The notes: generated from the letters alone by a model not told the origin. A stretch of 64,000 nucleotides of DNA from an uncultured Clostridium sp. (GCA_947651825.1 CANTAQ010000001.1:414249-478248), one strand, 5' to 3'. Positions 20,007-34,548 are shown, counted from the stretch's first letter. Numbers and translations: made by a program.

Positions 20007-20093
20007 AAATCCGCTCCATCTTGCTGGATGTTCATTTTTAAATTTTTAATACAATTGTTTAAAAATTTAAAAATGAACATCCACATGGAGCTA
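20007..20093 (+). repeat. compound palindromic repeat element, copy 1
   Basis: ATCCGCTCCATCTTGCTGGATGTTCA...TGAACATCCACATGGAGCTAC with an inner palindromic stem. Confidence 0.8.
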
Positions 20094-20187
20094 CTCAAAT
20101 ATCGAGTAATAAGCAAACAATTTAATCGTAAATCTACTCATAAAAAACATGAAAATCTCAAAAATATTTGAGATTTTCACATTAATT

Positions 20188-21414
20188 CTAATTACTTTTT
20201 TCTACTAATAAGTCCTCATGTGCTATAGGATTTTCGCTGTATTCTATTTCAATTGCTCCTCCTATTGTGTCCAGTTCTTTTAATTTTTTTAACTCATTTT
20301 CATCTTTTGTTGTTACTGTAACTTTTATGTTATTTGTATCTTCCATTAAACCAGATGTTGTTACAAATGTTAATTCTTTGCTTTGCATTTTTTTACTTAT
20401 TTTTTCTTGTAATTGACTCAAATATTCATATGAATATTTTGCTTCTTTAAATATTGTATTGCTCTCTGTTATTTCTAATTCTTTACAAATGTCTGCTCTA
20501 TTTTCTGATGTGTCTTTGCAAAGTAATACTACATTTCTTCCTGAATTATCAACATATTTTCCTGCATAATAGTCTTTACTATTTAAAATTTCTTTTGGTT
20601 GTTCTGTGCTTCCTACATCTTCATCTTTAACTGGTCCTTTTTGCTTTGCTTCTCCTATTATTGATTCTAATAATTCTACTAGTTCATTTTCTGTTACATC
20701 ATTTGTTTCTATATCAAAAAATATATCATTATATTTAAATCCAGCCATATACATTTTAAATTCTTGTGAATGATATATTGACATTTCTACTCCAGCTATT
20801 GTAGATTTTGTATCATTTTCTGATATTCCATAATCTCTTAAAGGTTCTCCTATTTTTGAAAATGATATTCTTATACTATTTCCTATCTCATCGTCACTAT
20901 TTTTGCTATACTCAAATACGTAATCATGTAATTTATCATATTTAGCTATATTTCTGTTACTTATAACATATATATTATAACTGTCTTCTAATTTATATCC
21001 CTCTGGCACTTTTATGCTTTTTATAAAATTAATTTCTTCTGGCAATTCTGTCATTTCTATTGTTTGAATATCTGCATCAAGTTTTGTAAGTCCCATCCCA
21101 TCTTCATCTATTTCGTTTATCTTTAATTCTGTTTTTAATTTTTCTACTCTTAAATCTTCTAATCCTTGCTGTTTATCTTGTTTAGCTGCAATATTTTGCT
21201 TTTCTTTTTCTCCTATTTTTATTTTGCTTCCAGCAATTACTACCATACAAATCATAAACATTGCAGCTGTTGATAGTACAGTATAAAATATCTTTTTGTT
21301 TTTAATCTTTTTCATATTTATCTCCTCCTTTATGGCCGATATAGCTATATTCTCTATTACAGTCTTTTGTATTTTATCTTTTAATTCTTTATTTTCCATA
21401 ACCATAACCTCCAT
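20188..21414 (-). CDS. anti-sigma-factor-like single-pass membrane protein with extracellular domain
   Basis: Overlaps the sigma gene by 26 nt. TM helix after ~40 aa. Its N-terminus is paralogous to the 30539 gene. Confidence 0.55.
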   Translation of the reverse strand: MEVMVMENKELKDKIQKTVIENIAISAIKEEINMKKIKNKKIFYTVLSTAAMFMICMVVIAGSKIKIGEKEKQNIAAKQDKQQGLEDLRVEKLKTELKINEIDEDGMGLTKLDADIQTIEMTELPEEINFIKSIKVPEGYKLEDSYNIYVISNRNIAKYDKLHDYVFEYSKNSDDEIGNSIRISFSKIGEPLRDYGISENDTKSTIAGVEMSIYHSQEFKMYMAGFKYNDIFFDIETNDVTENELVELLESIIGEAKQKGPVKDEDVGSTEQPKEILNSKDYYAGKYVDNSGRNVVLLCKDTSENRADICKELEITESNTIFKEAKYSYEYLSQLQEKISKKMQSKELTFVTTSGLMEDTNNIKVTVTTKDENELKKLKELDTIGGAIEIEYSENPIAHEDLLVEKSN

Positions 21415-21943
21415 TCTCTAGATTTCTTTTTATTTGTTTTCTTACTCTATGCAATATTACTTTTACTTTGCTCTCTGAAACTGATAGTTTGCTAGCTATT
21501 TCTTTTATCTTTAGAGCTTCATAGTAAAACATCATAAATATTTCATATTCTTCCTTTTTCATTTTTTTTAATGTGTTTCTAATGATTTCGTTTTGTTCAT
21601 TTTCTTCAGTTATTTTTTGCAAACTAGTTATGTATATTATCTTTTCTTCATAGTCCACTATAGAAAAATCCGTATTAGTAGTCCTATATTTATTCCTAAT
21701 AATATTCTTGGCTGTACCCGCTAAATATGGCTTAATATAAACATCTTCCTCCAATTTTCTACTATTTTTCCATATTGCAAAAAATGTGTCTGAAATTATT
21801 TCTTCCATATCTTCATTAGATATACTAATACTTTTTAGGTTTTTTACTATTGTATACACATAACCATAATATTCATTTATAAGCTTTTCTATATTGATAT
21901 TACTACTATCAATATAATCCTTTATTCTTTCTTTATTCTCCAA
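21389..21943 (-). CDS. sigma-70 family (ECF-like) RNA polymerase sigma factor
   Basis: Region 2 and region 4 HTH (IKEIASKLSVSESKVKVILHRVRKQ). TTG start. It is a paralog of 30981-31556. Confidence 0.75.
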   Translation of the reverse strand: MENKERIKDYIDSSNINIEKLINEYYGYVYTIVKNLKSISISNEDMEEIISDTFFAIWKNSRKLEEDVYIKPYLAGTAKNIIRNKYRTTNTDFSIVDYEEKIIYITSLQKITEENEQNEIIRNTLKKMKKEEYEIFMMFYYEALKIKEIASKLSVSESKVKVILHRVRKQIKRNLENGGYGYGK

Positions 21944-22004
21944 TTTAGATCTAAATCTCCTTATTATACTATTTACTCTATTATGTTATACTCTGTAGCT
22001 CCAC

Positions 22005-32042: not shown

Positions 32043-32129
32043 TTCACAGTTATTCTATGGAATCCGCTCCATCTTGCTGTCGGTTGGACATTTTCATTTT
32101 TGTACAGTTGTTCAAAAATGAAAAGTGCA
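32043..32129 (+). repeat. compound palindromic repeat element, copy 3
   Basis: Conserved termini. Lies between cadA and the ArsR-family gene. Confidence 0.8.
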
Positions 32130-32228
32130 ACCTCCACGTGGAGCTACATAGCACGATAAAATAAATTTGTCGTGAGCTGTAACATTTAACATAAATATAA
32201 TATCACACATTTACCTATATTTCAATGT

Positions 32229-34310
32229 TTAACTTCTTTTTGTCTGCAATGCTCTTATTGAATTTATTACTGCTATAATTGTTACTCCAACATCTGCAAT
32301 TACAGCTTCCCAAATCGTTGCAATTCCAAATACTCCAAGAGTCATAGCTGCTAGTTTCACCACTATAGCTAATACAATATTTTCAATTACAATCTTTCTA
32401 GTCTTTCTTGCTATTTTAATTGCTGTTACAATTTTTGATGGTTCATCTGTCATAATAACGACATCAGATGCCTCAATTGCTGAATCTGAACCTATTCCTC
32501 CCATTGCAATTCCTACATCTGCTCTTGCAAGTACAGGACTATCATTTATTCCATCTCCAACAAAAACTACTTTTCCATCTTTCATACATTTCTCTAACTC
32601 TTCTACTTTATCCACTGGTAAGAGCTCTGCAACTACTTTATCTATTCCAATTTCTTCTCCTATATGTTCTGCAATTTGTTTTGTATCTCCTGTTAGCATA
32701 ACTGTATTTTTTATGCCTAATTGCTTTAATCCTTTAATAGCACTCTTTGAATCTTCTTTTATTACATCAGAGATTACAATATATCCTTTATATTTTCCTT
32801 CTATTGCGACATGAACAACTGTACCAATTATTGCTTTTTCTTCATATTTTATTTTTTCTTGAATCATCAACTTTGAATTTCCTACTAGTACTGTTTCCCA
32901 ATTGACACTAGCTTTTATTCCATTTCCAGAAATCTCTGTATATCCTTTTATTTTTGATTTATCGATATCTTTTCCATAAGCCTTCACTATAGAAGTCGCT
33001 ATTGGATGATTTGAATAGCTTTCTGCATAAGCACAATGTTCTAAAAGCTCTTCTTTACTAATTTCACCTACTGGTACAATTTCTGTAACATTAAAAACAC
33101 CTTTTGTTAATGTTCCTGTTTTATCAAAAACAACTGTATCTATCTTATTTAAAATTTCTAAATAGTTTGCTCCTTTAACTAAAATCCCTCTTTTAGATGC
33201 TCCACCTATGCCACTAAAAAAACTTAGTGGAATTGAAATTACTAATGCGCAAGGGCAAGATATTACTAAAAATACTAACGCTTTATATAACCAATCTGAA
33301 AATAGTGCATCTTTTATAAATAATGTTGGTATTGCTACAATTAAAACTGCTAGTAGCACAACTATTGGAGTATAAATTCTTGCAAATTTTGTTATAAATT
33401 TCTCTGTATGAGCTTTCTTATTGCTTGCATTTTGTACTAACTCTAATATCTTTGATACTGTAGAATTCTCAAATGTTTTTGTTACCTTTACTGTTAATAC
33501 TCCTGTTTTGTTAATCATCCCACTTAGTATTTCATTTTCTTCTTTCATATTTCTAGGAACTGATTCACCTGTTAATGCTGATGTGTCTATTAAAGATTCT
33601 CCCTCTAATATAATTCCATCAAGTGGTATTTTTTCTCCTGGTTTTACTATTATTTCATCTCCTACACAAATTTCGCTTGGAGATACTTTATTAATCCCAC
33701 CTTCTGTTTTCAAGTTAGCATAATCTGGTCTAATATCCATCAGTTTTGTTATTGATTTTCTTGACTTTTCTACTGCTTTATCTTGTAAGAATTCTCCTAC
33801 ATTATATAACAGCATTACTGCAACAGCTTCATGAAATTCTCCTATTCCAAATGCACCTATTGTTGCAATTGTCATTAAAAAGTTTTCATCAAAAACATCT
33901 CCTTTAAATATATTTTTTATTGCTTTAAAAATAATTTCGTATCCAATTATAATGTATGATGACAAAAATATCACTAACTCTGTTGTTTTACCAAATTCGA
34001 ATATTATTCCTATTGCAAATAATATCGCACTTACTATGATTTTTACTAATTCAATTTTAGAATGCCCTTCTTCCTTATCTTGTTTTTCTTCAGTTTTTTC
34101 TAGTACTTCTACATCTGGTTCCAAATCTTTTATTAAAGATTTTATTTCATTTACAACGCTTTCTTGATTTACATTTCCATGCAATTCAATTTCTAATGTT
34201 TGTGTCGCAAAACTTAGGGTTCCATATTTTACATCTTTCAAACTATTAACTTTTGTTTCTATTTTAGCCGCACAATTAGGACAATCTAATCCTTTTAATA
34301 TATACTTCAT
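32229..34310 (-). CDS. cadA: Cd/Zn-translocating P-type ATPase
   Basis: Motifs GLDCPNCAAK (HMA), CPC, DKTGT, GDGINDSP. Start set at MKYIL after AGGAGG. Confidence 0.85.
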   Translation of the reverse strand: MKYILKGLDCPNCAAKIETKVNSLKDVKYGTLSFATQTLEIELHGNVNQESVVNEIKSLIKDLEPDVEVLEKTEEKQDKEEGHSKIELVKIIVSAILFAIGIIFEFGKTTELVIFLSSYIIIGYEIIFKAIKNIFKGDVFDENFLMTIATIGAFGIGEFHEAVAVMLLYNVGEFLQDKAVEKSRKSITKLMDIRPDYANLKTEGGINKVSPSEICVGDEIIVKPGEKIPLDGIILEGESLIDTSALTGESVPRNMKEENEILSGMINKTGVLTVKVTKTFENSTVSKILELVQNASNKKAHTEKFITKFARIYTPIVVLLAVLIVAIPTLFIKDALFSDWLYKALVFLVISCPCALVISIPLSFFSGIGGASKRGILVKGANYLEILNKIDTVVFDKTGTLTKGVFNVTEIVPVGEISKEELLEHCAYAESYSNHPIATSIVKAYGKDIDKSKIKGYTEISGNGIKASVNWETVLVGNSKLMIQEKIKYEEKAIIGTVVHVAIEGKYKGYIVISDVIKEDSKSAIKGLKQLGIKNTVMLTGDTKQIAEHIGEEIGIDKVVAELLPVDKVEELEKCMKDGKVVFVGDGINDSPVLARADVGIAMGGIGSDSAIEASDVVIMTDEPSKIVTAIKIARKTRKIVIENIVLAIVVKLAAMTLGVFGIATIWEAVIADVGVTIIAVINSIRALQTKRS

Positions 34311-34463
34311 GGTTCCTCCTTTTTCATATGTTTGTATGTTCATATATTCATTATATGCATTTCATATTTTTTTGTCAATATATTTTTGAAAAAATTTTTT
34401 AATTTGATTATTATTATATTATTGGAGTGCTTGAAAAGGCAAAATCCATACTTTCACAATAAA

Positions 34464-34548
34464 AAATCCTCTCCATCTTGCTGGATGTTGAACTTTTTAA
34501 AAATCCTCTTTAATCGGTTTTTAAAAAGTTAACATCCACGTGGAGCTA
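34464..34548 (+). repeat. compound palindromic repeat element, copy 4
   Basis: Conserved termini. Upstream of cadA. Confidence 0.8.

Follow-up and report, generated by a model that had tools for sequence, protein, structure and literature searches.

The window analysed here is a stretch of 64,000 nucleotides from an uncultured Clostridium sp. (CANTAQ010000001.1:414249-478248). It is an ordinary chromosomal stretch with nrdDG, an ABC-F gene, a copA operon, cadA, extracytoplasmic function (ECF) sigma factor genes and cell-wall genes, and no transposase, recombinase or integrase was found in its 64 kb. Four of its intergenic spacers contain one copy each (c1 to c4) of an interspersed palindromic DNA repeat of about 90 nt, here named E, in which a near-invariant base carries a long co-varying stem. 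By position, c1 and c2 flank a sigma/anti-sigma gene pair, and c3 and c4 flank cadA. A preliminary description of the window had placed all four copies between genes, correctly, and had offered three explanations for them: mobile palindromes similar to repetitive extragenic palindromes (REPs) or to the miniature transposable elements with inverted repeats (MITEs), recombination sites that move gene cassettes, or a structured RNA such as an mRNA stabilizer or terminator. E is a new lineage-restricted, multicopy intergenic hairpin repeat, one of the bacterial interspersed palindromic repeats.

Structure of the repeat

A covariance model (R1), the building of which the preliminary description had proposed, was made from 42 family members and run over the window, where it found exactly four copies at 74-98 bits, the next best match scoring 13 bits. 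The conserved 5′ and 3′ 16-mers have five matches each in the window with up to three mismatches, compared with 0.49 and 0.07 expected, and a count of five was reached by none of 100 shuffles. All four copies fold far better than their shuffles, both as RNA on either strand (z from -4.3 to -9.9) and as DNA (z from -5.2 to -10.1). The homology of the four copies is thereby confirmed, by sequence, by the 16-mer matches and by the model, but some details of the preliminary description had to be amended. Its third copy (32043-32129) was set about 19 nt too far to the left, and the coordinates of the other three needed slight correction. The termini that it quoted are those of c1, c2 and c4, but not of c3, which has GGTTG/CAACC, a compensating change, in place of the GGATG/CATCC pairs. 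To call each inner sequence a long perfect palindrome was a slight overstatement, since c2 and c4 carry apical loops of 13 nt and about 10 nt.

The anatomy of the unit was read from 42-45 copies. The 5′ flank is (A)AAA followed by TCC, and the foot is a stem of 6-7 bp in which GCTCCA(T) is paired with (G)TGGAGC. What had been described as an asymmetric bulge resolves into two bulges, both on the 5′ arm: one of 3 nt (CTT or TCT), then a single G-C pair, then one of 1 nt (C). Above the bulges are TGG/CCA pairs, about 8 variable bp, a conserved T4-5/A4-5 block and a variable, subfamily-specific distal hairpin; after the foot, the 3′ flank is TA, any base and TTT(G). The consensus ends are TCCGCTCCA ... 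TGGAGCTA. The flanks are also conserved, with A at positions -6 and -5 in 41/45 and 36/45 copies, and T at positions +4 to +6 in 26-32 of 45. The inner hairpins fall into subfamilies common to several loci and species (apical examples are TACAGTTG, TCGACTAAAGCAC and CTCTTTAATC), their apical loops being invariant across species and their stems variable.

The pairing was evaluated on a structure-agnostic MAFFT alignment, with partners slid by 1-3 columns as the control, and is strongly supported. Paired cells amount to 94.3%, versus 35-50% with slid partners, and 129 cells are changed on both sides, versus 27-57 in the slid controls; the observed covariation score was reached by none of 500 shuffles, and one compensatory change separates the orthologous copies of L007 and L019. 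G·U pairs are about as rare in the stems as A·C mismatches, so the complementarity looks like that of a DNA palindrome and not that of a one-strand RNA. One copy (L033:7903-7977) is a perfect palindrome, its 3′ arm being an exact complement of the 5′ arm with the normally bulged bases included, which is evidence of arm-to-arm conversion and, like the rarity of G·U and the lack of orientation bias, speaks for a signal in DNA and not in RNA. Derivatives with deletions of the hairpin tip were also found, among them strain L042, in which 27 nt have been lost from the tip of c4.

A sister family, E2, is represented at two loci (L017:7297-7423, + strand, 127 nt; L008:1582-1775, + strand, about 195 nt) and has no match in Rfam. 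Its flanks (AAAGTCCG ... CTATTTT) and its two bulges are the same as in E. The foot, GCCAAA/TTTGGC, differs from that of E by three pairs, each compensated on both sides, and the interior is larger, more complex and non-palindromic, with TTTTTTATTGAACCCACGTTTGATACGCC common to both copies. This covariation of the foot between E and E2, with the unpaired nucleotides and the asymmetry kept, is the best evidence that the foot is recognized as a folded structure. In L017, E2 is tail-to-tail with an E copy, 13 nt apart.

Distribution, genomic context and turnover

A count of copies beyond the window, which the preliminary description had proposed as a way of finding what they flank, was obtained by a pattern scan of one genome per species. 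It returned 35 loci, of which 31 are real and belong to about ten metagenome-assembled genomes (MAGs), the other four being chance matches in genomes of high GC content. The host MAGs are uncultured Clostridium or Clostridia from the guts of mouse, rabbit, chicken and deer, and are AT-rich (27-32% GC). The richest genome, MAG CANDIF01, has 20 exact-pattern copies, and the covariance model run over 321 kb of loci recovered about 52 copies, degenerate and internally deleted ones included; the copy number of E is about 20-30 per genome. A metagenome scan gave 13 loci, several of them chance matches in high-GC DNA, and added little, and no match to E was obtained in viral contigs, phages or plasmids. 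In full-text literature the conserved 11-mers match unrelated primers only, and no description of such a Clostridia repeat was found in the REP, RAYT and MITE literature searched. E is confined to a clade of uncultured AT-rich gut Clostridia, and is a dispersed family, not a local feature.

All copies are intergenic and occur in either orientation, in a ratio of 17:13 relative to the flanking genes and 22:14 relative to the majority strand of the locus (p = 0.24). The 38 occupied spacers comprise 34 between co-directional genes, four between divergent genes and none between convergent genes, where the background of 249 spacers is 191, 29 and 29, respectively. Neighbouring genes are ordinary (ileS, rubrerythrin, dnaB/dnaI, hpf, pnp), and copies adjoin them as readily as they adjoin cadA. 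The copy in L012 is within the dnaB-dnaI operon, at a place where another species has no copy and a gap of 17 nt, and the copy in L003 is 13 nt past a stop codon and 30 nt ahead of the next start.

When the copies of the window are compared with the same sites in relatives, E is seen to be gained and lost between species and strains. At the c2 site, where the copy is 52 nt upstream from the start of the sigma gene, one and the same insert of about 128 bp is present in the window and in L044 (another sister-species strain), and the site is empty in four genomes: L062 (a 98%-identity strain of the window species), L045, L068 and L069. Each of two species has genomes with c2 and genomes without it, a sister-species strain being among the empty ones, and two empty outgroups indicate that the empty state is ancestral. 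In one sister-species MAG an assembly gap (a run of N) with duplicated flanks is situated exactly at this polymorphic site (L046:4350-4440), where the repeat or its polymorphism may break assemblies.

The segment of about 161 bp that includes c1 is absent from the same site in L068, a 75%-identity relative in which the toxin-antitoxin genes are kept, and the same subfamily is found at the c1 place in L069, a 57%-identity relative. The sister species lacks c1 together with the Phd/YoeB pair (19370-19886) and csoR (18940-19248), all within 18940-20141 of the window; the first gene of its copper operon is the thioesterase gene, which directly follows the same CsoR-box promoter.

The 148-bp segment around c3 is missing in its entirety in three relatives, one of them the sister species. 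The cadA/arsR gap of the sister species (70 bp) has no copy, and one is found between arsR and the next sigma gene instead. In the mscL-cadA spacer, where the window has c4, the sister species has a copy of a different subfamily in the opposite orientation, an 80%-identity species has none (one copy is upstream of its mscL), and a 74%-identity species has a truncated remnant in the orientation of c4, consisting of the 5′ module only and followed by the outer motif GCTGTGAACTGTAAC (L072:640-720). The remnant shows that E has long been resident here and has decayed through deletion. Coordinates of the copies and of associated sites are collected in Table 1.

Table 1. Copies of E in the window, their long forms and adjacent sites.
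Feature	Position	Strand	Remarks
c1, core hairpin repeat, subfamily A	20006-20097	+	apical ACAATTG; covariance-model score 97.5 bits; sequence, fold
c2, core hairpin repeat, subfamily B	21992-22081	-	conserved 13-nt apical loop TCGACTAAAGCAC; 74.3 bits; fold, loop conservation
c3, core hairpin repeat, subfamily D	32059-32150	+	cadA/arsR spacer; 87.6 bits; sequence, fold
c4, core hairpin repeat, subfamily C	34463-34552	+	mscL/cadA spacer; 83.6 bits; sequence, fold
Segment of ~161 bp with c1	19981-20141	+	starts with outer motif TTGCTATTCATA, A/T runs at bounds; alignment of window, L062 and L068
Indel polymorphism of ~128 bp with c2	21965-22092	-	12 nt + core + 32 nt; present in window and L044
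Long form of 148 bp around c3	32036-32183	+	imperfect terminal inverted repeats GTTGCAATTCACAG (32036-32049) and CGTGAGCTGTAAC (32171-32183)
Direct repeat of 8 bp, left copy	32028-32035	+	ATTTAACA; single in empty L036 site
Direct repeat of 8 bp, right copy	32184-32191	+	ATTTAACA; single in empty L036 site
Native intrinsic terminator of anti-sigma gene	20146-20183	-	upstream of c1 in the direction of transcription
Promoter-like site of Phd/YoeB operon	19913-19941	-	TTGACG-17-TATAAT with TG; downstream of c1
Promoter-like site of cadA	34350-34378	-	perfect TTGACA-17-TATAAT; downstream of c4

The genes between the copies behave differently from the copies. The sigma/anti-sigma pair keeps its position, with or without repeats, in species with anti-sigma proteins of 82%, 75%, 57% and 51% identity, and cadA-arsR is syntenic in species at 84%, 80% and 74% identity while the repeats shift position and orientation. 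These comparisons bear on the proposal that the copies are recombination sites of the attC or dif type, recognized by their structure, which bracket the sigma/anti-sigma and cadA cassettes and move them. E does resemble integron attC sites in its conserved paired base, its extrahelical bases on one arm, its hypervariable distal stem-loop and the keeping of structure over sequence, and copies about 2 kb apart flank window genes in pairs. However, the RYYYAAC/GTTRRRY core sites are missing from E, and its foot has no AAC/GTT triplets; c1 is inverted relative to c2; single copies are scattered in both orientations over unrelated intergenic sites beside housekeeping genes that have their own promoters, not set in a co-oriented array beside an integrase, and the window has no integrase; and the flanked genes are not cassettes. 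The preliminary description itself would have taken copies at random intergenic sites, not associated with cassettes, as a refutation, which is what is seen. It had also proposed to see whether the cassettes are present or absent as units; the flanked genes are fixed and the repeats come and go. E is not tied to any gene cassette, and cassette or attC-like sites, a reading of minimal credibility, were rejected on the synteny in relatives and the housekeeping neighbours. For annotation, the practical caution is that paired repeats around resistance or regulatory genes are here no sign of mobile cassettes.

Mobility, host function and relation to known repeats

The reading preferred here, with moderate confidence, is that E is a clade-specific non-autonomous hairpin element of REP/MITE type, whose bulged foot is recognized in trans by an enzyme encoded elsewhere. 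The mobile palindrome of the preliminary description is supported by a family that is dispersed, multicopy, intergenic and in both orientations, at positions that differ between sister species and strains. The enzyme encoded elsewhere would copy E in trans, recognizing the folded, bulged foot as a structure and not as a duplex terminal repeat. The stems would stay complementary both because propagation is limited to foldable copies and because either arm can serve for the repair or conversion of its partner. Any influence on neighbouring genes would probably be incidental, amounting to an extra hairpin in 3′ untranslated regions (UTRs) or in the spacers between operons. It is probably in DNA that the conserved asymmetric base is read, because the asymmetry shows no correlation with the direction of transcription, G·U pairs have no advantage over A·C, and the copies are dispensable between strains.

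Several results weigh against this reading. No mobilizing enzyme was found in the 64-kb window or in the loci of about 8 kb around exact-pattern copies; a phmmer search of 213 locus open reading frames for IS200 TnpA or REP-associated tyrosine transposase (RAYT) proteins gave nothing, but is a weak test. Target duplications of 2-8 bp at boundary offsets of 0-15 nt are not in excess over permuted flanks, and the 22:14 split of orientations gives no sign of the lagging-strand bias that transposition as single-stranded DNA, as for IS200/IS605, would be expected to leave. Indels between genomes (128 bp at c2, 148 bp at c3, about 161 bp at c1) exceed the core and their outer parts are poorly conserved, which makes the extent of the mobile unit uncertain. 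Some of the empty sites could have arisen by palindrome-stimulated deletion and not represent the state before insertion. At the c1 site of one species the core keeps 95% identity, beside a protein of only 57% and in a spacer of about 50% identity; this conservation, and apical loops that are invariant while stems vary, would fit selection for propagation, concerted evolution or host function. Finally, about half of the copies follow stop codons closely, with a short T-run after the hairpin, and are possible terminators.

The uncertain ends raise the question of a longer element. An outer motif, GTTRCARTTCACAG, is found at c1, at c3, at two CANDIF copies (L031:5344 and L012:2837), at a sister-species copy and at the L072 remnant, its distance from the core being about 10 nt on one side and/or about 24 nt on the other. 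ATTTAAMA adjoins both c1 and c3, and c3 has a classical insertion signature, made up of imperfect terminal inverted repeats and an 8-bp direct repeat, ATTTAACA, which is clean in this copy only and of which the empty site has one instance. Along with the indels that exceed the core, these observations would accord with a classical cut-and-paste or copy-paste MITE of about 130-160 bp with GTTRCARTTCACAG termini, mobilized by a DDE transposase acting on its duplex terminal inverted repeats with an 8-bp target duplication, the core of about 90 nt being its conserved interior. Such an element is rather improbable. The outer motif is within 80 nt of only 8/44 copies versus a background of 13%, and unrelated copies of the most abundant, most recently amplified subfamily have no homology past AAAATCCG...GAGCTAnTTT. 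Target duplication is not enriched at any offset or length, a MITE is expected to have its termini best conserved and not its interior, and the covariation of the foot between E and E2, with bulges and spacing asymmetry kept, speaks for pairing and not for duplex recognition.

The terminator of arsR (31600-31641) is a perfect 19-bp hairpin with the ends GTTACA...TGTAAC, terminal hexamers that are the same as those of the long-form outer motif, and the sister species has an E copy set into this place. The hairpin may be a relic of the long-form element.

A role for the repeat in its host has also to be weighed against the preferred mobile element. Flanked by an A-run and a T-run, E could be a hairpin useful in either orientation, as a back-up intrinsic terminator or insulator, or as a stabilizer of mRNA in 3′ UTRs or between cistrons like the REPs of Escherichia coli. 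The conserved runs place a U-run after the hairpin on both strands; about half of the copies start 10-40 nt past a stop codon without other terminator, in either orientation and with no orientation bias among them; some copies are within operons (between dnaB and dnaI in L012, and in L003); and the core and the apical loops are conserved past neutral expectation. Yet the repeats are not called by a consensus terminator scan, as the T-run begins 3 nt after the stem, where an intrinsic terminator is defined by a U-tract 0-2 nt after a GC-rich stem at the 3′ end of a transcription unit. The place of c1 is between the anti-sigma terminator and the Phd/YoeB promoter and that of c4 between the mscL terminator and the cadA promoter, so both follow separate native terminators in a presumably untranscribed gap before the next promoter, and for the anti-sigma gene the primary terminator is the native one, not c1. 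Between convergent genes there is no copy, though 29/249 spacers are convergent, and four copies are between divergent genes. The presence/absence polymorphism among strains implies that the repeats are dispensable, the bulges, strongly conserved in their asymmetry, show no correlation with orientation, and G·U pairs are not preferred to A·C. A host-useful hairpin is accordingly held to be unlikely.

The structured RNA of the preliminary description survives only in part. Stabilizer or terminator functions stay among the rivals, but a strand-specific RNA is disfavoured by the missing Rfam match, the missing orientation preference and the rarity of G·U. A known RNA family was rejected, as Rfam has no match to the window at gathering thresholds and, in E-value mode, sub-threshold matches to generic microRNA hairpins only. 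A primary intrinsic terminator is unsupported for c1 and c4, which native terminators precede, and no orientation bias was seen.

Among repeats already described, those of the REP/RAYT system are closest to E in behaviour. REPs are short extragenic hairpins that number tens to hundreds in a genome, lie in either orientation and are often located closely downstream of genes, with bulged stems, a conserved unpaired foot tag and several subfamilies per genome; they cause no target duplication, are lineage-specific and persist vertically (PMC3733652, PMC6006769). E is likewise an extragenic bulged hairpin in both orientations with a foot tag, subfamilies and no target duplication, and is lineage-specific and vertically persistent. 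It differs in size (a core of about 90 nt versus 20-40 nt), in having only about 20-30 copies per genome, and in its host, since E belongs to a low-GC Clostridia clade and the REP surveys consulted are dominated by Proteobacteria; neither Clostridia nor Firmicutes are named in the REP survey of 2013. The criterion for a REP is an unpaired GT[AG]G tetranucleotide 0-2 nt to the 5′ side of the hairpin foot (PMC6006769, PMC3733652). E is without this defining tag: on its reverse strand the foot tag is nTA followed by the first G of the stem, with T in 45/45 copies, A in 41/45 and a leading G in 16/45 (about 36%). No REPtron-like arrangement, with a usually single-copy Y1 HUH gene flanked by copies, was found in the window or, by the weak phmmer test, in the loci of about 8 kb around every exact-pattern copy.

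In lifestyle E is like the BOX-type repeats, to which it is unrelated in sequence. Pneumococcal BOX, RUP, SPRITE and Bacillus cereus bcr1 are modular, non-coding intergenic repeats of about 100-150 nt in low-GC Gram-positive bacteria. In BOX-type repeats the conserved end modules pair around a variable middle, and copies are in both orientations and also inside operons; TA/TTTAT duplications occur with RUP and bcr1, as do terminal inverted repeats. In place of tandem boxB units, the variable middle of E has one long hairpin whose tip is specific to the subfamily, and as a family E is without terminal inverted repeats and duplications of the RUP/bcr1 type. A further likeness is to the hairpin MITEs of Gram-negative bacteria (Correia/NEMIS, ERIC, YPAL), which are long imperfect palindromes of about 100-170 bp, intergenic and co-transcribed. 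A subset of E copies (c3 and c1) has outer terminal inverted repeats as hairpin MITEs do, and one has an 8-bp direct repeat, but most copies have neither terminal inverted repeats nor duplication, and the part best conserved is the internal bulged foot, not the termini.

Much is known of the interspersed hairpin repeats of Proteobacteria and of a few cultured Firmicutes, and those of the uncultured Clostridia dominant in animal guts are essentially undescribed. The design of E, with a near-invariant bulged foot that co-varies between two families, conserved apical loops and freely co-varying stems, is unusually informative, and offers a tractable handle for finding the enzyme that propagates such elements in Gram-positive bacteria, for typing strains of MAG-only species by presence/absence, and for testing the insulation of transcription units by hairpins. 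A more speculative proposal, put forward tentatively as a possibility of low probability, is that E and E2 are both substrates of a structure-specific DNA-processing system of low-GC gut Firmicutes, parallel to REP-RAYT or attC-IntI. In such a system a trans-acting nuclease or recombinase would read the foot with its two one-sided bulges and unpaired tags (TCC/TA) and would be indifferent to the sequence of the foot, since this sequence co-varies from one family to the other; the apical loops, conserved and possibly functional, would cap a distal hairpin that is free 'cargo'.

Other features of the window

GTTGCCATGGCAAC, a palindrome of 14 bp that also has the variants ..ATAG.. and ..CTATGG.., occurs in three copies at 9805-9818, 9949-9962 and 11068-11081. 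Two of these are in a duplicated promoter region of 108 bp (9889-9996 and 11008-11115, 84% identical) upstream of nrdD (divergent), of an open reading frame of 156 aa and of a gene for a regulator of the Crp/Fnr family. The palindrome is probably an operator of this regulator.

The two ECF-type sigma genes of the window each overlap a downstream gene (21389-21943 with 20188-21414, and 30981-31556 with 30539-30991), and share a stretch of 104 nt with 70% identity (21852-21955 and 31444-31547). An inverted repeat of 150 nt (38299-38448 and 55896-56045, 74% complementary) covers the 5′ ends of two opposed genes, 37107-38354 and 55912-57654, the products of which probably share a paralogous N-terminal region.

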